Of a stretch of 64,000 bases of DNA, positions 2,929 to 60,972 are shown in pieces. The translations under genes and the position numbers were made by a program. How positions within the stretch are numbered: position 1 is the first letter of the stretch; the number at the start of each line of letters is the position of its first letter. Below the pieces are notes generated by a model. The model had not been told where the DNA came from. It worked only from the letters and a program-made list of their open reading frames with translations, and made no database searches. The stretch is from Dehalococcoidia bacterium. GTDB taxonomy: Bacteria > Chloroflexota > Dehalococcoidia > Lucifugimonadales > UBA3495. The DNA lies in assembly GCA_965220605.1 (NCBI GenBank), contig CBDCQM010000005.1, positions 93,614-157,613 on the forward strand. The letters are read 5' to 3'.

Positions 2929-3268
2929 AAGAGGCTTTTCCAGTCCAGCGTCGGGCAGCGCCAGCTGCGTGGACTGTTCCGTACGGAGGCTGGAGGCCGG
3001 GTTTCCGCCTTAGCCTCTTTGGGTCTGTTCCCGGCGTTCCGGCAAAGGGCGCAGCCGGTTCGGGGTAGGAATTCTTAGCTCTGCAACAGTCCAGCCTCTG
3101 CTCGGGGGCACCGTGCCACTCTCTGGGTGTCCGCATCAGTCGTGCGCGAAACAGCGGTAAGGAAACCGTGCTTGCGGCTACATTCTCCGGTCGGCTCCGC
3201 CGATGGGCTAGAAGTCGTCCGTGATCCCTACTCCCGCCTGTGGCTCCCCTTCCATTCTCTCCGGGCAG

Positions 3269-23731: not shown

Positions 23732-23797
23732 TGCTCTATAAGAATCATCCATCAGGTCCCGTTGAGGGCATTGATTGATTGTTGGGTAAGGTTGGCC

Positions 23798-24877
23798 ATG
23801 ACCTCGATGATAGAGAAACTTGAACCGATTATTCACCGCTTTGAAGACATCGAAATCTCCATGGCCGACCCGGATGTGGCTTCCAACTTCGAGAAAATCC
23901 AGGAGCTGGCGAAAGAGCGCGCGTCCCTGGAAGACCTGGTCAACATCGCCCGGCAGTTCCTGCAATTGACCGAGGAAATCGCCGATCTGGAAGCACTGAT
24001 CCAGGAAGGCGCCGAACCCGATCTTGCCCAGATGGCCCGGGAAGAACTGGAGGACAACAGCGTTCGGCTGGAAGAGCTTTCGTTGTCTCTACGCACCGCC
24101 CTGCTCCCCAAGGACCCCAACGACCAGCGCGACGTGATCATCGAGATTCGAGCAGGCACGGGCGGCAATGAGGCCGGCCTGTTTGCCCGCGATCTCTACC
24201 GCGCATACAGCCGTTACGCCCAGAACAGGGGCTGGGAAGTTGACGTCATGGACGCCAACCCCAGCGAGGTCGGCGGCTTCAACAAGATTGTTTTCGAGGT
24301 ACAGGGCCAGGGAGCCTACAGCCGCTTCAAGTACGAGAGCGGCGTCCATCGCGTGCAGCGGGTGCCCGAGACAGAGACCCAGGGGCGCATCCACACTTCG
24401 ACCGCCACCGTCGCCGTGCTTCCCGAGGCCGACGAGGTTGAGGTCAAGATCAACGAGAACGAACTCAGGATTGACATCTTCCATGCCGGCGGTCATGGCG
24501 GGCAGAACGTCAACAAGGTCGCCACGGCCGTCAGGATCGTGCACGAACCATCGGGCGTCACTGTCGTATGCCAGGACGAGCGTTCCCAGTACAAGAACAA
24601 GCAGAGGGCCATGTCTTTGTTGAGGGCCAAGCTGTTCGAAGCCGAGCAGGAGCGCCACGACGCGGAGATCAGCCAGGCCCGCCGCTCCCAGGTCGGGGGC
24701 GCCGAACGCGCTGAAAAGATCCGCACCTACAACTACCCCCAGGACCGGGTGACCGACCATCGCGCAAACTCGACCTTCCACGGCATTCCCAAGCTCATGG
24801 ACGGCTACTGGGACGAGGTCATCAACCGGCTCGTGTCCTGGGAAGAAGAACGACTGTTGGCAGAGGCGGGCGTCTAG
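23798..24877 (+). CDS. prfA: peptide chain release factor 1
   Basis: GGQ motif (AGGHGGQNVNKV). The P-x-T tripeptide region is RVQRVPETETQGRIHTST. Confidence 0.95.
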   Translation: MTSMIEKLEPIIHRFEDIEISMADPDVASNFEKIQELAKERASLEDLVNIARQFLQLTEEIADLEALIQEGAEPDLAQMAREELEDNSVRLEELSLSLRTALLPKDPNDQRDVIIEIRAGTGGNEAGLFARDLYRAYSRYAQNRGWEVDVMDANPSEVGGFNKIVFEVQGQGAYSRFKYESGVHRVQRVPETETQGRIHTSTATVAVLPEADEVEVKINENELRIDIFHAGGHGGQNVNKVATAVRIVHEPSGVTVVCQDERSQYKNKQRAMSLLRAKLFEAEQERHDAEISQARRSQVGGAERAEKIRTYNYPQDRVTDHRANSTFHGIPKLMDGYWDEVINRLVSWEEERLLAEAGV

Positions 24878-24961
24878 CGCCTGGCCTCCCCCGGGTCCTC
24901 CATCTGACTCTGACGCCTGGCCGCAGCTGCTCATGACTTTGCTCAAGCCACGGCTGAGTCC

Positions 24962-27256
24962 TTGACCGAAATCCCTGTCTGCCGTTCCTGCAATTTCACC
25001 AACCTGTCCCGGGCGGTGTTCTGTGGCGGTTGCGGCCGGTGGCTCAATCCCACCGACTGCCCTCATTGCAGCGCCGTCAACCCCAGGCTCCACGAATCCT
25101 GCCTGCGGTGTGGCAGGCCACTGTTCCCCGTCGATACCGCCACCCCTGGATGCGGCCACGCCTCAAGTCCTTCTCCGGCTCCCGCAGACAATGTTGAAGC
25201 GTCAGGTCGCTTGGCTCACACCCTGGCCGGACTCCGATCATCCCCCTTACGCCCGGCCTTCTTTGCCGGTTTAAGCGCCAAACTGGCCGACTACAATTTG
25301 GCCCTGCTAATCGTCGGCGCCGCCGTGGTCGTACTGGCCCAGCTTGGTCTCGTATTCTCCCTGGAAGTCAACGTGAAGGCTCCGGCAGGGTACCTGCTTC
25401 TCCTGGCTCTCGGAGCGGGGGTCTTCTTTCTGGGTTCGATCGGTCTGCGGGCAAAGCAGTCGTCAACCGAAGGGCCGACCCTCATCCGGCATGAGCCATC
25501 GGCAAACGGAGACACTTTCCCTGCCACCTTTATCGGGGTTGTCGGCATCATAGTCGGAGGGCTGGCTCTCGGGTCTCTTCTCATCCTGCTGGCTGCGGGC
25601 TCCAACTCCGGCTACCTCCTGATTCCGTGGCTTCTCGGCCTAGCCGCCTTTGCCGCTCCCTTCCTTCCGAGGCTGGAATCGACCGCGTTAACCCTGCACG
25701 ACCGTGCAACGGAAGCGCTGAAACGCCATCGCCTCGACGCGTTGATCGTTCTTGTGCTGATGGCCCTCTTCCTGGGATTGGCGCTTTTCGACCTCCGCGA
25801 CTGGTACTACTCGGCCATAGGCGACGAGTTCCTGTTCTTCGAGCACGCCAGGCGGATCGTAGATGAGGGAATCACTCGCCCTTTCAGCCAGGAGGGGGTC
25901 TACAACAAGTACCCGGTAATGAGCTCGGTCTTCCAGGCACTATCCATGCGGGTGTTTGGCGCCGACTACTTCGGATGGACTCTCAGCGAAGGACTACATG
26001 CTGCAATCACAATTCCCGGAATCTACCTGCTGGGATACATCCTCGGCGGTCGAAAGGCCGCAGTCTTGTCCGCAGCCCTGTTCGCCTTCAGCCACTACAT
26101 CCTTGCCCTCTCCCACGCGGGGTACAGCAACCTTTCTCCACTGCCGGTCGCAGTCTGGTCCATAGCCCTGTTCGCGTGGGGATGGAAGAGCGACAACCCT
26201 CTTCTCTTCTACCTGGCAGGGGCGATAGCCGGGATGGGCTTCTACACTCACTACTCGGGGAGAGCCGTACTGCCAATCATATTCCTGTTCGCGCTGACCG
26301 AGGGCAGACCTCGTCGAATCCTGGAAATGTGGCCCCTGGCCTTGGGATTTGCGCTGGCCGTGGCGCCAACCTTCCTGGTGGAGAAAGAAAAGGTCTTCAC
26401 CCGCATGTTCAGCGAGGTGGTTGGCGGCTATTCGGAGGTGGTCAGCGGCTCACCACTGGCGCGAGTCCTTGGCAACATAGAACTCAATCTACCCGCCTTC
26501 AATTACAGTTCGACCGTTCACACCTACGTCTACGGGGCGTTGCTTGATCCCATAACCGCGGTGCTGGCCGTGCTTGGAATAGCCTTCGCGCTCGGGCATA
26601 TCAAGTTACAGCGCTTTCGGCTCCTACTGGTATGGTTCGCGGTAGCCGTAACGGTGACCGGAATCCTGTCCCCATATCCTCACGTGGCAGTCACCCGGCT
26701 CACCTTCGCCGTTCCGCCGCTCGTACTGCTGGCGGGTATATTTGCGGCCCGCATGGTCGACGCAGTGCACATTCCCCGGCAGAGAGTGAAGACTTTCCCG
26801 GTACCGGTCATCACTGTGGCCGTTTTCTCCCTTCTGCTGCCTTGCGTAATGCTGCTGAACCTCTGGCAATTCCGGGCGGTTACTCCTGAAGTACATCCCC
26901 ATGCGCCGGAGGCCGTCGCTATGGGCGCTTTACAATCGGAACCCTGCAATGGCGATCTTGCCGGAACAGTCTTCGTGGGTCCCGCGGTTGGTGACGGCAG
27001 CCTGATGAATCAGGTTCTGGACTCCTTTCACCCTGACCGGCCTTCCTTCCGGTTCCTCAATCACAACGAGATCAAGCCCGACAGCGGGCTAACGGGCCAG
27101 CCGCTGCGGTGCGTTATCTTCCTGGAACCCAGCTCGCCGGAAATCGGACCATTGCAGGAACAGCTGGCTCGCCGGTATCCTGATGGCAGGATGCAACCCT
27201 TTACCAATCCTTCAGGCACAACCACAGTCGAAGTATTCACCCCGGTGCGCCACTGA
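24962..27256 (+). CDS. polytopic membrane glycosyltransferase (GT39/ArnT-like) with an N-terminal double zinc ribbon
   Basis: N-terminus CRSC...CGGCG...CPHC...CLRCG. More than 12 hydrophobic helices follow, typical of PMT/ArnT-like enzymes. TTG start. Confidence 0.6.
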   Translation: MTEIPVCRSCNFTNLSRAVFCGGCGRWLNPTDCPHCSAVNPRLHESCLRCGRPLFPVDTATPGCGHASSPSPAPADNVEASGRLAHTLAGLRSSPLRPAFFAGLSAKLADYNLALLIVGAAVVVLAQLGLVFSLEVNVKAPAGYLLLLALGAGVFFLGSIGLRAKQSSTEGPTLIRHEPSANGDTFPATFIGVVGIIVGGLALGSLLILLAAGSNSGYLLIPWLLGLAAFAAPFLPRLESTALTLHDRATEALKRHRLDALIVLVLMALFLGLALFDLRDWYYSAIGDEFLFFEHARRIVDEGITRPFSQEGVYNKYPVMSSVFQALSMRVFGADYFGWTLSEGLHAAITIPGIYLLGYILGGRKAAVLSAALFAFSHYILALSHAGYSNLSPLPVAVWSIALFAWGWKSDNPLLFYLAGAIAGMGFYTHYSGRAVLPIIFLFALTEGRPRRILEMWPLALGFALAVAPTFLVEKEKVFTRMFSEVVGGYSEVVSGSPLARVLGNIELNLPAFNYSSTVHTYVYGALLDPITAVLAVLGIAFALGHIKLQRFRLLLVWFAVAVTVTGILSPYPHVAVTRLTFAVPPLVLLAGIFAARMVDAVHIPRQRVKTFPVPVITVAVFSLLLPCVMLLNLWQFRAVTPEVHPHAPEAVAMGALQSEPCNGDLAGTVFVGPAVGDGSLMNQVLDSFHPDRPSFRFLNHNEIKPDSGLTGQPLRCVIFLEPSSPEIGPLQEQLARRYPDGRMQPFTNPSGTTTVEVFTPVRH

Positions 27257-27318
27257 CTGCACACTGCGAGAATGGCTCAACTACAATCGGCCGACCAAGG
27301 CCCCAGGTTTAGAGGACT

Positions 27319-28173
27319 ATGGCAGTAATCCGCGAGACCATCCGGGAAACCCATCAGACTCTTGAATCTGCGGGCATTCCTGACGCCCGCCTGGAAGCCG
27401 AGGTCATGGTGATGACCGTGATGCGCATGACCCGGCAGAACATCTTTGCCGAGCAGGAGACCCAGGTGCCTCCGAATGTGGCCGAAGAGCTTGCGGGAAT
27501 CATGGCCCAAAGGCTGGAGCGCATTCCCCTGGCTTACATCCTGGGCCACAGGGAGTTCTACGGCATCAACGTGGTGGTAACCCCGGACGTGCTGATCCCC
27601 AGGCCCGAAACGGAGGGCATGGTGGAGCACACCCTCTTCATGGCGCTGATGGGCATGGAGACCCGGGAGCTGACCATCGCAGATGTCGGGACCGGCAGCG
27701 GCGCTATTGCCGTCAACCTTGCCATTCACCTGCCCGCAGCCCGCATTTACGCCATCGACATTTCAGAACCGGCGCTGGACGTCGCCGCCTGGAACATCCG
27801 GGCACACGCGGTTGCCGACCGGGTGAGACTGGGCCACGGCGACCTGCTGGAACCGCTGCCCGAACCGGTTAACCTCATAGTCGCCAACCTGCCGTACATC
27901 CCCACCGGCCGGATCCCCACGCTACAGCCCGAGGTTCAGCGGGAACCAGTCCAAGCCCTCGACGGCGGCTCCGACGGCCTGGACCTTGTCCGTCGTCTGA
28001 TCCAGCAGGCCCCTGCAAAGCTGACCAGCCCCGGCATGATCCTACTGGAACTGGACCCCGAGCAGTTCCCTGCCGTCGAGGCCATCGCATTGCAACACTT
28101 TCCCGACGCCGAGATCACCGCCGAGCAGGACCTCGCCCACAACGACAGGATAATGGTGATCAACAGACCCTGA
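27319..28173 (+). CDS. prmC: release-factor glutamine N5-methyltransferase
   Basis: DVGTGSGAIA SAM motif and an N-P-P-Y-type motif (IVANLPYIP). Confidence 0.9.
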   Translation: MAVIRETIRETHQTLESAGIPDARLEAEVMVMTVMRMTRQNIFAEQETQVPPNVAEELAGIMAQRLERIPLAYILGHREFYGINVVVTPDVLIPRPETEGMVEHTLFMALMGMETRELTIADVGTGSGAIAVNLAIHLPAARIYAIDISEPALDVAAWNIRAHAVADRVRLGHGDLLEPLPEPVNLIVANLPYIPTGRIPTLQPEVQREPVQALDGGSDGLDLVRRLIQQAPAKLTSPGMILLELDPEQFPAVEAIALQHFPDAEITAEQDLAHNDRIMVINRP

Positions 28174-28261: not shown

Positions 28262-29764
28262 CTACAGCCCGGTAAGTTCCACAGTCGCGACCTCGCCGGC
28301 GTCCATGTCCGCGACACGTATGGCGTGGTTGTTGGTGTCGGCGATATACATCTTGCCGTTGGCAATGCTGAGGCCGCACGGCTCCGAGAACCTGGCCTGG
28401 GCGAAGGGGCCGTCCACGTGTCCCGGGGACCCCGCTCCGGCCACGGTGAAGGCCGAACGGGTCTTCGGCAGCACCCGCTTGATCTTGTGGTTGTAGGTGT
28501 CGGCCACGTACAGGACACCCTCGTGGTGCGTGATGCCGATGGGATGCTGCATCCTGACCCGGAAATCATCCCCGTCTACGTCGCCGAACTCGAACAGCCC
28601 CAGCCCGATGATGGTACGCACCGATCCCCTGGGGTCAAGGTCGCAGTTGCGGATGGAGCTGGTCTCGCTGTCGGCGAAAAACAGCCGCTCGCCGCCGTTC
28701 CCATCGCTTCCGACGGTAATGCCGCTGGGCTGGGCCAGGGCGGAAGTCGCCAGCGGCCCGTCGGTGATCGCTTCCCGCCCACTACCGGCGTATGGGCCGA
28801 CGATGACGGTTTCCAGGTCCAGCGACCACAGCTGGTGGATGCCCGCCATGGCGATGTAGACGACCCCGTTGTGCAGCGCCACATCCCACGGAGAACTGAG
28901 GCTAGTTTCCAGGCCGTGTCGGCCCCCGGTGCGGTCGTATCCCTGCTCACCCGTGCCGGCCAGCGTCTGCACCTGCCCTGAAGCCAGGCCAACCCGTCGG
29001 ATCGCGTGGTTCTCGGTGTCGGCCACATAGAGGAAGTCGCCGTCCAATGCCATCCCCTGGGGGTGATTGAAGGCCGCCTGTTCCACTGGCCCGTCAACCA
29101 GCGCTTCCTCTCCGGTGCCAATAATCTGCCGCACCTCGCCGTCGAAGGACGAAACGATGATGCGGTTGTGGTTCGTGTCGGCGATGAACAGCCTGCCGCC
29201 CGCCTCGTCGGCCAGCACCTTGCCGGGGAAGCTCAGGGCGCTTTCCGGGCCACGCGGAGGCGTCGTGGGCAGCTGCGACCGCTGCATGATGCCGAGCTCA
29301 TCGAATTCGGCCACCATGCCGCCGATCAAAGTGTCGAACTGCTCGAAGGTCAGCTCTCCCTCGTGCTTGCCGATAACATTGCCCCTCGGGTCGATGAACA
29401 TCAGCGTTGGCCAGGCGCGGCAGGAATACTGCTGCCAGACCTGGAACTCCGCGTCATTGATGACCGGGTGCTCCAGCTCGCACCGCCGCACCGCCGCGAC
29501 GAGGCTGTCGGTCTCCTTCTCCGTCGGGAACTTGGCCGAGTGCACCCCGACCACCACCAGCTCGCTGGCGTATTTGCGCTCCAGTTTCCGCAACTGCGGA
29601 AAGATGTGCATACAGTTGACTCAACAGTATGTCCAGAAGTCGAGGATGACGATCTTGCCCTTCAGCTCCTCCATGGTCAGCGCCCTGTCGGTGTTGATCC
29701 ACTCCAGGCCGGCGGGAAACTCGGGCGCCGCCACTGTACCGGCGTATGAACGGCTCGTTGTCAT
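28262..29764 (-). CDS. thioredoxin-like/NHL-repeat protein (NHLRC2-like), predicted selenoprotein with Sec encoded by TGA at 29623-29621
   Basis: Track ORFs 29621..29812 and 28262..29611 are in the same frame. Joined, they read ...[30 protein letters not shown]..., so the TGA lies at the first Cys of the CxxC motif. A hairpin follows 18 nt downstream. GGAGG precedes the ATG at 29764. NHL repeats include [36 protein letters not shown] and [13 protein letters not shown]. Confidence 0.75.
29585..29602 (-). promoter_or_regulatory. candidate bacterial SECIS hairpin
   Basis: The RNA reads UGA + 18 nt + UUUCCGC-AGUU-GCGGAAA. This is a perfect 7-bp stem with a 4-nt loop; G is at loop position 2, 27 nt after the UGA. 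Confidence 0.6.
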
Positions 29765-29812
29765 CAGGACCTCCGGTATTCTGACCAGTATCGATTGGGA
29801 AGGCGGGGGCAC

Positions 29813-55013: not shown

Positions 55014-56681
55014 GAGCCTGTCCCAGAAAACGCCTGTTTCGACCGAAAGGAGTGGTGAGTGCCTTCGGGCGTTGCTAGTAGAGTCGGGTTCGACGGCAGA
55101 TTACGACTTGATGAGTTTTGCGCGTCCGGGAGGGTCTTGGGATCGCACCGAAATCAGGGCACGGGGCCCGATGTGGGACTATGAGGCGCCAGTACGAAGG
55201 TCCCGTCCCGCCATATGCGCCAGAGAGTCCGCAGGTTGAAGGCGATTGCCAAGAGATTCCACTCAGCCGCCACGTTGACCAGGCCCCGCAGCAGGAATCT
55301 TCGGGCTCCCATTTGTTCCTTGGTAATTCCGAACACCGGCTCGACCAGTTGCTTTCTCAGCCGATATACCTCTTTCGCCAGGCTGGTGGACATCCAAGCC
55401 CGGTGCCGGCGCAGCACATCGTCGTGAGGCCCAATCCACAGACTACGGCCACGCTTGGATTTGGTGCATACCCCGTAGGCTGGACACTGCTGGCAGACGC
55501 CTGCGGAAGCGCGGTACTTCCTCATTGGCACTCCTCTTTTGTCTTCGCTGATGCCGATGAAGTGGAGCGTCTGTCCCTGGGGACATTCAAAGCTGTCGCT
55601 GGGTTCATCATAGGTGAACTGATCTTTGTGATAGGGACTTCTGAGGAACCGTTCCCGCGACTCCGGCACCACCACCTGCTGGCCACGATCCGCGCAATCG
55701 GCCAAGTCGCTCCCGGAAAAATACCCAGCATCGGCCAGCGTCATGGGTGTTCTGGTTCCCGTAGCCTCCTCAGCGCGCTCCATCATCGGCACCAACTGAT
55801 AGTTGTCATTGGGCACAGACACCACGTGCGCGGCGGTGATCAACATGCCCGTGGGTTCCCCGTCCTGCTCCACTGGAGATACCATGGCCTGGGCGTTGTA
55901 GGCCGGCACGACGCCGTAGCTGGCCTTCATCAGCCGGGCGTCCTGGTCCGTAAGATTGATGCGCCTGGGCTTCTTTGCACCGGCCAACTCGTCCATCGCC
56001 TGCCGCAGGCGCTCTCTCAGCGCTTCCTTGTCGGCCAGTTCTTCAGGCAGATTGACGGCGCTGGCGTCTTCTCCACCTTCGTTCTGGGCTTCCAGATCGG
56101 CTATCGCCCGGTCCACCCGGTCTAACAACTGGGCCAGTCTCTCCCCGTCGTAGCTGCGGTGCACCGACGCGCTGGCGGCCATCTTGGTGCCATCCACCGC
56201 CTGCACCGCCAGGTCCACCAGCTTCATCGCCACCGCCGTCCGCACCGTGCGCTTGAACAAGCTCCGCATTTCCTGGCGATGGGCCTTGTAGAACCGCCAG
56301 AGGGTGTTGTGGTCCGGATGCTGCCATCCTGTCAGCCACAGGTACGGAATCTGGTCTCGACAGGCCGCCTCCAACTTGCGGCAGGAGCGCACTCCCGTCA
56401 TGAACCCGTAAAGCCACACGCAGAGCAGGGACCTGGGATGGTAGGCCGGGGCTCCCAGCGGGTCCCCGTCTATTTCCACACCCAGCTCCGCCCAACCTTC
56501 TCTGCCCAAGGCGTCGACAAACTCGGCGACAAAACGAGCCGGATGGTCCAACGGCAGCAGTTCGTCAAGGGACGGCGGCAACAGCCACATCTGCTCTCGG
56601 TCCATATCCCGAAGTGGCATCTTATCGGCACCTCCGTCAGGCTTGACCACAGTCTACACCCCGACTTTTGAGACAGGCTCA
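55014..56681 (-). mobile_element. IS1182-family insertion sequence nested in the IS5-family orfA
   Basis: The IRs are GAGCCTGTCCCAGAAAA (55014-) and, on the reverse complement, GAGCCTGTCTCAAAAG (-56681). The 4-bp direct repeats AAAA lie at 55010-13 and 56682-85. Removing the IS restores ...RILPF|LESARRR. Confidence 0.8.
55154..56620 (-). CDS. IS1182-family transposase (apparently intact)
   Basis: MPLRDMDREQMWLLPPSLDELLPLDHPARFV... is a DUF772-like N-terminus; C-terminal DDE ...LADAGYFSG...; CxxC...C cluster; GGAGG precedes the ATG at 56620. Confidence 0.8.
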   Translation of the reverse strand: MPLRDMDREQMWLLPPSLDELLPLDHPARFVAEFVDALGREGWAELGVEIDGDPLGAPAYHPRSLLCVWLYGFMTGVRSCRKLEAACRDQIPYLWLTGWQHPDHNTLWRFYKAHRQEMRSLFKRTVRTAVAMKLVDLAVQAVDGTKMAASASVHRSYDGERLAQLLDRVDRAIADLEAQNEGGEDASAVNLPEELADKEALRERLRQAMDELAGAKKPRRINLTDQDARLMKASYGVVPAYNAQAMVSPVEQDGEPTGMLITAAHVVSVPNDNYQLVPMMERAEEATGTRTPMTLADAGYFSGSDLADCADRGQQVVVPESRERFLRSPYHKDQFTYDEPSDSFECPQGQTLHFIGISEDKRGVPMRKYRASAGVCQQCPAYGVCTKSKRGRSLWIGPHDDVLRRHRAWMSTSLAKEVYRLRKQLVEPVFGITKEQMGARRFLLRGLVNVAAEWNLLAIAFNLRTLWRIWRDGTFVLAPHSPTSGPVP

Positions 56682-60790: not shown

Positions 60791-60867
60791 GGCGAGCGTA
60801 GCCGAGTGGTCAAGGCGCCTGTCTGTGGCACAGGAGATCACGGGTTCGAACCCCGTCGCTCGCCCCA
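60791..60867 (+). tRNA. tRNA-His (GTG)
   Basis: Hand-folded. The acceptor stem has 8 bp including G-1:C73 (GGCGAGCG/CGCTCGCC). The anticodon stem is CCTGT/ACAGG with loop CTGTGGC. The T arm is ACGGG-TTCGAAC-CCCGT. CCA is encoded. Confidence 0.85.
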
Positions 60868-60896
60868 ACCTCTCCGGTGCATTCCCCTAACCACCA

Positions 60897-60972
60897 GCGC
60901 CTGTAGCTCAATGGATAGAGCACTGGGCTTCGGACCCAGGGGTTGCGGGTTCGAGTCCTGCCAGGCGCGCCA
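60897..60972 (+). tRNA. tRNA-Arg (TCG)
   Basis: Hand-folded. Acceptor GCGCCTG/CAGGCGC; D arm GCTC-AATGGATA-GAGC; anticodon loop CTTCGGA; T loop TTCGAGT; CCA is encoded. Confidence 0.85.

Follow-up and report, generated by a model that had tools for sequence, protein, structure and literature searches.

Human NHLRC2 and Arabidopsis SOQ1 are proteins of solved structure in which a thioredoxin-like domain is joined to an NHL propeller, and both carry the active-site motif CCINC. In NHLRC2, this motif lies at the N terminus of helix α1, in the cleft between the two domains, with Cys89 and Cys90 protruding from the surface, and it is inactive in the classical insulin assay (PMC6107167). Bacterial homologues of NHLRC2 usually have no C-terminal domain, and their genes lie outside conserved operons (PMC6107167). 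In SOQ1, C431 and C434 form a redox-active pair with a midpoint potential (Em) of -274 mV that passes electrons to a Cys pair of the C-terminal domain, and the lumenal region of the protein has methionine sulfoxide reductase activity (bioRxiv 10.1101/2024.11.01.621559). Bacterial selenoproteins with a UxxC motif, where U is selenocysteine (Sec), have been catalogued as Sec-thioredoxin, Sec-glutaredoxin, DsbA-like, Prx-like thiol:disulfide oxidoreductase, thiol-disulfide isomerase-like and redoxin families (PMC9312934, PMC13188914). Here, we describe a gene that appears to bring these two groups together. It lies on the minus strand of a 64,000-nt stretch of DNA (hereafter the window) from a Dehalococcoidia bacterium (assembly GCA_965220605.1, contig CBDCQM010000005.1, positions 93,614 to 157,613 of the forward strand), and it is predicted to encode a member of the NHLRC2/SOQ1 family in which an in-frame TGA specifies Sec.

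An In-Frame TGA in a Gene of the NHLRC2/SOQ1 Family

Two minus-strand open reading frames (ORFs), 29621..29812 and 28262..29611, share one frame that measures 1551 nt end to end, and they are separated only by a TGA (29623-29621) and three sense codons (GTC AAC TGT), which are followed by an ATG. In the gene callers' version, the coding sequence (CDS) 28262..29764 becomes a 47/63-aa ORF and a separate 449-aa ORF. When it is read through, the joined frame runs from the ATG at 29764 to the TAG at 28264-28262, with the TGA as its single internal in-frame stop, and the ATG at 29764-29762 is the likely start of a 500-residue product in which the TGA is codon 48. Since TGA ends 27 of the 59 predicted genes in the window, where it is the commonest ordinary stop, the genetic code has not been reassigned.

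The joined protein aligns over almost its entire length with proteins of known structure. Its best solved relative is the lumenal Trx-like/NHL region of Arabidopsis SOQ1 (7DJJ, E = 5e-130, residues 12-499 of the joined protein), and human NHLRC2 (6GC1, E = 1e-115) covers residues 11-493, while the propeller-only chains 7DJM and 6G7W align to residues 174-499. The closest stand-alone structural relative of the Trx-like domain is the C-terminal one of Mycobacterium tuberculosis DipZ (2HYX and 5CYY, E = 5e-20, residues 12-178). In the window protein, as in NHLRC2 and SOQ1, a thioredoxin-like domain of the Trx_8 type thus leads directly into an NHL propeller with six blades, and the three proteins agree in the register and context of the active site, DFWTYC-C/U-I/V-N-C-MH. 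The TGA falls between strand β1 and helix α1 of the thioredoxin-like domain, and the alignment places U48 on the second Cys of the SOQ1 CCINC motif (C431), the NHLRC2 counterpart of which is C90.

There are also differences. Where NHLRC2 (Cys90) and SOQ1 (Cys431) have Cys, the window protein has a predicted Sec, and after the motif it reads P-Q-L-R, a peptide forced by the downstream RNA element described below, rather than the P-D-L-K/E of NHLRC2 and SOQ1. It contains neither a HAD domain nor a transmembrane helix. It ends with the propeller, at residue 500, and the C-terminal β-stranded domain of the mammalian and plant proteins, which in SOQ1 holds the second redox pair and the reported methionine sulfoxide reductase activity, is absent. 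This does not exclude the protein from the core of the family because the short architecture is the usual one in bacteria (PMC6107167). Since the protein ends with the propeller and its N terminus is not hydrophobic, the two-domain form is probably located in the cytoplasm. DipZ, on the other hand, has the motif S-C-I-N-C with Cys rather than Sec, has no propeller, and is membrane anchored and extracytoplasmic.

The initial annotation of this locus, made from the sequence alone, had joined the two ORFs across the TGA and read them as one 500-residue gene, not two genes or a pseudogene, related to NHLRC2 and other Trx-NHL proteins with CCINC, and it had placed the TGA at the first position of a thioredoxin-fold CxxC dyad. 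Our results bear out this reading: the arrangement of the ORFs is as described, the 7DJJ and 6GC1 alignments and the Pfam matches (Thioredoxin_8 and NHL) establish the kinship, the TGA aligns with the second Cys of C-C-I/V-N-C both in SOQ1 and in Cys-containing orthologues, and similarity and purifying selection continue across it. The locus is almost certainly one gene, encoding a 500-residue thiol/selenol oxidoreductase of the NHLRC2/SOQ1 family that gene callers have wrongly cut in two.

TGA and Cys Forms among Orthologues

Our orthologue set consists of 80 loci, from a scan with one genome per species, and two metagenome contigs whose gene is 99% identical. At the aligned codon, 47 of these 82 loci have TGA and the other 35 have TGC or TGT. 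The 47 TGA loci represent different species-level genomes, and identity between the proteins falls as low as ~55%. Their hosts are many metagenome-assembled genomes (MAGs) of Dehalococcoidia/SAR202, closed chromosomes such as OZ241328.1 and OZ244112.1 included, other Chloroflexota, two Rokubacteria and Candidatus Fervidibacter sacchari PD1, a named strain with a complete genome that exists in culture. In PD1, the gene is locus L045 of NZ_CP130454.1, around 639-647 kb, and with the predicted Sec it reads ...DFWTYC-U-INCLHMLPQLR. Cys forms occur in Planctomycetota (anammox), Acidobacteriota, Latescibacterota, Binatia, Armatimonadota and some Chloroflexota. In almost all loci, ...LDFWTYC directly precedes the TGA, with Tyr changed to Phe in a few. 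Cys forms read C-C-I-N-C, except for three loci with G-C-I-N-C (L054, L071 and L079).

Both sides of the TGA have evolved as protein-coding sequence. Among 46 TGA forms, the ratio of nonsynonymous to synonymous divergence (pN/pS) is 0.29 over the 25 codons upstream of the TGA and 0.19-0.31 downstream, with synonymous divergence near saturation in these flanks (pS 0.61-0.73), a pattern that points to purifying selection on the protein on either side of the TGA.

Public gene calls show this split at the TGA throughout. When the joined sequence, with Cys substituted for the stop, served as a protein query, 8000 relatives were returned, the best 120 of which are 85-100% identical, have 444-464 residues and all cover exactly the part after the TGA. 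In a search of family representatives, the results of which were dominated by giant multi-NHL proteins, at least eight truncated clusters were found.

Several orthologues depart from the common form. L091 and other metagenome loci encode long Trx-NHL proteins with Gly before Sec (DFWTYG-U-INC), mirroring the G-C-I-N-C Cys forms; together, these two kinds of sequence imply that the first Cys of CCINC is dispensable and that the U/CxxC pair is the constant core. Among full-length representatives, P0262 reads DFWTYSCINC and is DipZ-like, with Ser replacing only the Cys that precedes the dyad, and P0235 reads DFWTCSSIACVH, in which the CxxC dyad is reduced to S-I-A-C, so that on its sequence it may be a redox-inactive variant. 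P0241, a truncated representative and presumably a Sec form, begins MHELPQLGKLE, with Gly in place of the Arg of P-Q-L-R, a change that would alter the 3' arm of the hairpin described below. In the Rokubacteria locus L069 (TGA at 3124), the frame extends 773 codons past Sec, compared with ~450 elsewhere, which suggests either that a further domain follows at the C terminus or that the gene is fused in frame to the one after it.

A Conserved Hairpin Downstream of the TGA

Starting 18 nt after the TGA, the mRNA can form the perfect hairpin UUUCCGC-AGUU-GCGGAAA, whose apical loop begins 25 nt after the TGA, whose loop G lies 27 nt from the A of UGA, and whose codons also specify F-P-Q-L-R-K. Its folding energy is -8.7 to -8.8 kcal/mol. 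Published criteria for a bacterial Sec insertion sequence (SECIS), or bSECIS, are a loop of 3-9 nt, a stem of 4-16 bp, 16-37 nt between UGA and loop, an MFE (minimum free energy) no higher than -7.5 kcal/mol, and, at loop position 1 or 2, a G with G or U after it (PMC13188914). The window hairpin, with a 4-nt AGUU loop, 7 bp, a spacing of 25 nt and -8.7 kcal/mol, lies within every one of these limits. Of the 1608 TGA triplets in the window, only 8 (0.5%) are followed by a Watson-Crick hairpin that is perfect over 7 bp or more and obeys the bSECIS spacing and loop rules. As judged from sequence and comparison, the UGA together with this hairpin is a bacterial Sec-recoding signal.

Conservation of the element follows the TGA. 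The invariant 12-mer CCGCAGUUGCGG, which is the core of the hairpin, lies 24 nt after the TGA; the 12-mer CCGCAGTTGCGG is found once per locus, at a fixed position, in 47 of 47 TGA loci, and the 35 Cys/Gly loci all lack it. The codons CCG CAG UUG CGG, at 24-35 nt after the TGA, do not vary at any site among the TGA forms, synonymous sites included, their third positions being 100% conserved in Sec forms versus 43-51% in Cys forms, and the peptide at this point is P-Q-L-R in Sec forms versus P-D-L-K or P-E-L-K in Cys forms. Over the six hairpin codons of the 46 TGA forms, pS is 0.096, six- to seven-fold below that of the flanks. The mean energy of the hairpin structure is -8.9 kcal/mol in Sec forms versus +4.7 kcal/mol in Cys forms, whose aligned columns are unable to pair into the helix. 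The initial annotation had taken the hairpin, with the spacing given above, for a SECIS, and it had proposed an alignment with Trx-NHL homologues and a comparison of the hairpin between TGA and Cys orthologues. Both now speak for it, in that 35 orthologous loci have Cys at the TGA position with similarity on both sides, the hairpin core separates the two groups completely, and all published bSECIS criteria agree with the element.

The stem also covaries. In an alignment of 48 TGA forms (A1), 99.4% of hairpin cells are paired, and compensatory changes are seen at two pairs, the outer U-A being replaced by C-G in six sequences and the third U-A by G-C in Fervidibacter. In 500 shuffles, the observed values were never reached, be it for paired cells, for cells with changes on both sides or for the covariation score; in slid controls, pairing fell to 31-72%. 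RNAalifold, unprompted, predicted the helix of the hairpin and no other. The UGA-plus-core pattern is moreover found in at least 120 metagenome contigs. Since these copies were selected on the inner 12 nt, only their outer pairs count as covariation evidence; at the third stem pair of 57 further unique copies of the NHL type, U-A occurs 30 times, C-G 18, G-C 4 and U-G 2 times, and at their outer pair C-G occurs 35, U-G 12 and U-A 5 times.

Two other potential structures around the TGA were considered and discarded. A lower stem, UGCAC/GCGCA, flanking the hairpin is not kept by orthologues and is not predicted by RNAalifold. An inverted repeat, GUUGA/UCAAC, which spans the UGA (29613-29625, minus strand) and is present in the MFE fold, follows from the codons UGU-UGA-xUC-AAC and seems to be a by-product of them and not a constrained structure; the third base of the Cys47 codon is T or C among orthologues.

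The same UGA-plus-hairpin module is present in a second, short family, represented by L085, L086, L092-L095 and ~50 other metagenome loci, which appear from contig names to come mostly from soil metagenomes. These are single-domain thioredoxin-like proteins of ~190 aa with a signal peptide and 104-110 residues after Sec, with the context VEFWT[YFH]G-U-INC[KRQ]N[VI]IPQLR[DGA]W and the stem CCCGC/GCGGG. In one of them, L085, the TGA is on the minus strand, at position 1720 of the reverse complement. At their cut-offs, the NCBIfam selenoprotein models give no match to this family. The 12-nt core of the hairpin is invariant over at least three phyla and two protein families.

As in the SECIS elements of the Escherichia coli fdhF/fdnG type and in the bSECISearch consensus, the hairpin is in frame, 3' of the UGA, and has G then U in a small apical loop, and its spacing and stability are within the bSECISearch consensus ranges. 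In the fdhF SECIS, which is placed 11 nt from the UGA, the upper stem contains a bulged U and the loop is of the GGUC type. In contrast, the window element is a plain 7-bp helix with an AGUU loop that starts 18 nt after the UGA, and the invariance of its 12-nt core is unusually rigid among bacterial SECIS elements.

Proposed Decoding and Rival Explanations

We consider it very probable, on this comparative evidence, that the TGA at codon 48 is recoded as Sec. A ribosome reaching the UGA would have the hairpin 18 nt downstream acting as a bacterial SECIS, and by the established bacterial pathway SelB-GTP-Sec-tRNASec would bind the apical loop, so that Sec rather than release factor 2 would enter the A site. 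The resulting protein would have the active site Cys47-Sec48-Val-Asn-Cys51, with Sec48 replacing the N-terminal, attacking Cys of the CxxC dyad. The substrate would sit in the cleft where thioredoxin-like domain and propeller meet, and Sec48 would be the nucleophile that attacks it. Following thioredoxin-fold chemistry and the UxxC selenoproteins (PMC9312934), Sec48 would then form a selenenylsulfide with Cys51, or possibly Cys47, to be re-reduced by a cellular reductant. By analogy with SOQ1, and as a speculation, the substrate could be an oxidized protein side chain, such as a sulfoxide, a sulfenic acid or a disulfide.

Some observations weigh against this reading. Taken as a whole, the 71-nt region folds no better than shuffled sequence (z = -0.38), and the decisive evidence is therefore comparative and not the fold of a single sequence. 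A search of 29450-29750 at a permissive E-value gave no SECIS-related Rfam match, although it is uncertain whether Rfam has a general bacterial SECIS model. With E. coli K-12 proteins as tblastn queries, selA, selB and selD were found neither in the 64-kb window nor in the flanks of related loci (~1.3 Mb), and linkage to a selenoprotein gene would not be expected of them; the only match to these queries, located next to L077, is EF-Tu. ARAGORN, applied to the window, 47 loci and 120 metagenome loci, found no tRNA-Sec, a negative that is weak because tRNASec of Chloroflexi, in which an unusual 8/4 type has been reported, can depart from the usual structure (PMC5389517). In addition, incorporation of selenium is a prediction for all members of the family alike. 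Rfam at the gathering threshold detected two tRNAs only over the whole window, and no tRNA-Sec, and Pfam gave nothing related to Sec on 20 window genes. Support of an indirect kind comes from the genome of one orthologue. The BSepDB data set, which is made up of Sec-pathway species, lists Dehalococcoidia bacterium UBA1141, the source of the TGA-form locus L010, with 49 selenoprotein genes, a number that puts it in the top ten of bacterial selenoproteomes, and it lists a second Dehalococcoidia MAG with 46 (PMC13326102). We also looked in the flanks for a second selenoprotein, that is, an in-frame TGA with coding sequence on both sides and a Cys/Ser/Thr motif, but the candidates are adjacent in-frame genes or frames that do not resemble genuine coding sequence; the one in L053 is a protein ending in ...YMNC with another gene directly after it.

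Three other explanations of the TGA have to be weighed against insertion of Sec. An error of sequencing or assembly, hiding a TGC or TGT, deserves no credence, since the identical TGA is found in two independent metagenome assemblies from different samples (genes 99% identical), in 45 further genomes and in at least 120 metagenome contigs. Alternatively, the TGA could be a true stop, and the locus either an inactivated pseudogene or the source of two products, a peptide of 47 residues and a protein of 449 residues that begins at Met52. All automatic public gene calls split the gene accordingly, and the window does have an ATG three codons past the TGA. This codon is, however, ATG in only ~68% of TGA forms and specifies Ala, Leu or Val in others, so that there is no conserved restart codon, nor is there a Shine-Dalgarno sequence. 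Such a protein would be cut through the thioredoxin fold, between β1 and the CxxC helix, and would lose the attacking residue of the dyad, while a pseudogene would not keep pN/pS near 0.3 on either side of the TGA across 46 species. Moreover, a stop leaves the frozen synonymous sites and the covarying stem without explanation, and we therefore regard it as extremely unlikely.

The comparative evidence speaks for recoding and for an RNA signal, not for the particular amino acid that enters, and the hairpin could in principle assist the insertion of another residue, either Cys, through a tRNASec-like tRNACys(UCA) and a SelB-type factor, or Trp or Cys by near-cognate read-through. There is a precedent in delta-proteobacteria, where a SelC*-type tRNACys(UCA) with a dedicated SelB* reads the UGA of selenoproteins as Cys in tests in E. 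coli (PMC5389517). However, selC*/selB* have been reported from delta-proteobacteria and from a handful of contigs of metagenomes, which probably belong to Nitrospirae or delta-proteobacteria, and not from Chloroflexota (PMC5389517), whereas UBA1141, a host of the TGA form, is reported to have the Sec pathway (PMC13326102). The hairpin matches the SelB-type bSECIS model exactly, and a need for Cys alone could be served by TGC, as it is in the 35 Cys orthologues, which makes recoding to another amino acid unparsimonious. We judge this explanation highly unlikely and retain Sec as the predicted residue at codon 48.

Comparison with Catalogued Selenoproteins

The mechanism proposed here is not new because thioredoxin-fold UxxC selenoproteins with a SECIS in the coding region are the commonest kind of bacterial selenoprotein. 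Like them, the window protein has Sec in place of the N-terminal Cys of a CxxC dyad in a thioredoxin fold, with the SECIS just downstream in the CDS, and Cys-containing homologues are widespread. Unlike the catalogued UxxC selenoproteins, it is of the DipZ/NHLRC2-type Trx_8 subfamily, carries a fused NHL propeller and places an additional Cys directly before Sec (C-U-x-x-C). The "thiol-disulfide isomerase-like" family from the Sargasso Sea reads DWuTWC (PMC1088965 supplement), a motif unrelated to that of the window protein. Its published context, …DFETDW-U-TWC…, is not matched by our protein, and the strings DFWTYC, FPQLRK and INCMH are absent from the same supplement. Within the portion of the Global Ocean Sampling (GOS) supplement that was consulted, the strings FWTYC and PQLRK do not occur. 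Catalogues of prokaryotic selenoprotein families from 2022 and 2026 name neither NHL, NHLRC2 nor a propeller, no NCBIfam model matches the window protein at its cut-off, and a full-text search of the literature returned nothing relevant linking NHL or NHLRC2 with Sec in bacteria.

The gene may already be in BSepDB under a generic TlpA-like, redoxin or thiol-disulfide name, and we see about equal chances that the selenoprotein family is catalogued or uncatalogued. The fuller proposition, that Sec-containing NHLRC2/SOQ1 orthologues are a family unnamed in published catalogues, common among Dehalococcoidia/SAR202 and also occurring in two or more other phyla, which marks human Cys90 as the nucleophile, is put forward tentatively, at slightly less than an even chance.

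Implications for Annotation and for NHLRC2

Mis-annotation of these genes is widespread, as illustrated by the 120 best homologues truncated at the TGA and by the at least 120 metagenome contigs with UGA plus hairpin, and many genes are therefore mis-called as a short ORF and a headless protein without its active-site nucleophile. In the hairpin, an RNA signal constrains the protein: its core has remained invariant over saturated synonymous divergence and forces P-Q-L-R where the Cys forms have P-D-L-K, which provides a simple search pattern. If the reading is true, the fact that the core is common to a single-domain Trx-like selenoprotein implies that UGA and SECIS were inherited together or transferred together, as one module.

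NHLRC2 is essential in mammals and is mutated in FINCA disease, yet its biochemical activity is unsettled, and the equivalent pair of SOQ1 has only recently been shown to be redox active. Natural Sec at this Cys is a classical sign of a catalytic redox residue. Because Sec/Cys pairs mark such residues, the Sec forms, if confirmed, would provide an independent argument from evolution that NHLRC2 uses the second Cys of CCINC (human Cys90) as its catalytic nucleophile, and they offer biochemistry a naturally hyper-reactive form of the enzyme. With its complete genome, F. sacchari PD1 makes the Sec reading testable.

Feature Coordinates and Genomic Surroundings

Table 1. Features of the predicted selenoprotein gene, in window coordinates
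Feature	Position	Strand	Remarks
Shine-Dalgarno-like GGAGG	29770..29774	-	5 nt 5' of ATG 29764-29762; read from the sequence, presumed function
Complete predicted selenoprotein CDS	28262..29764	-	500 codons plus TAG, Sec at codon 48; based on frame and translation
Thioredoxin-like domain (Trx_8 / TlpA-DipZ-like), residues 36-130	29375..29659	-	Pfam Thioredoxin_8 PF13905, E = 8e-15
Active-site motif Cys47-Sec48-Val49-Asn50-Cys51 (C-U-x-N-C)	29612..29626	-	Counterpart of C-C-I/V-N-C in NHLRC2 and SOQ1
In-frame TGA, predicted Sec residue 48	29621..29623	-	TGA in 47 orthologous loci, TGC/TGT in 35; aligns with SOQ1 C431
Predicted bacterial SECIS hairpin UUUCCGC-AGUU-GCGGAAA	29585..29602	-	7-bp stem; 4-nt loop 29595-29592; loop G 29594
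NHL-repeat β-propeller, residues ~175-500	28265..29242	-	Pfam PF01436 NHL (NHL repeats E = 2e-25), PF25021

Downstream of the gene and convergent with it (23762-28173, plus strand) lie a class-I release factor gene (PCRF and RF-1), a PMT_2 glycosyltransferase gene, whose product has an N-terminal double zinc ribbon, and prmC, which encodes the release-factor methyltransferase. The same convergent arrangement is found in the near-identical loci L081 and L082. Any tie between the release-factor and prmC neighbors and the decoding of UGA is probably coincidental. Upstream, on the same strand as the selenoprotein gene, there are two dienelactone hydrolase genes. Overall, the gene neighborhood offers no clue to function.

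Elsewhere in the window, the plus-strand segment 19611-23646 looks like a quinone-biosynthesis cluster, with a UbiD-like decarboxylase, ORFs that are named UbiA prenyltransferase and flavoprotein (UbiX-like) in L081/L082, and then a UbiE/COQ5 methyltransferase; a small aspartyl-protease-like ORF is located between the flavoprotein and UbiE genes. An insertion sequence at 55154-56650 (minus strand) carries a DDE-type transposase gene (DDE_Tnp_1_6, DUF772). Finally, tandem tRNA-His(GTG) and tRNA-Arg(TCG) genes (60792-60972, plus strand) lie upstream of a glutamine synthetase gene.

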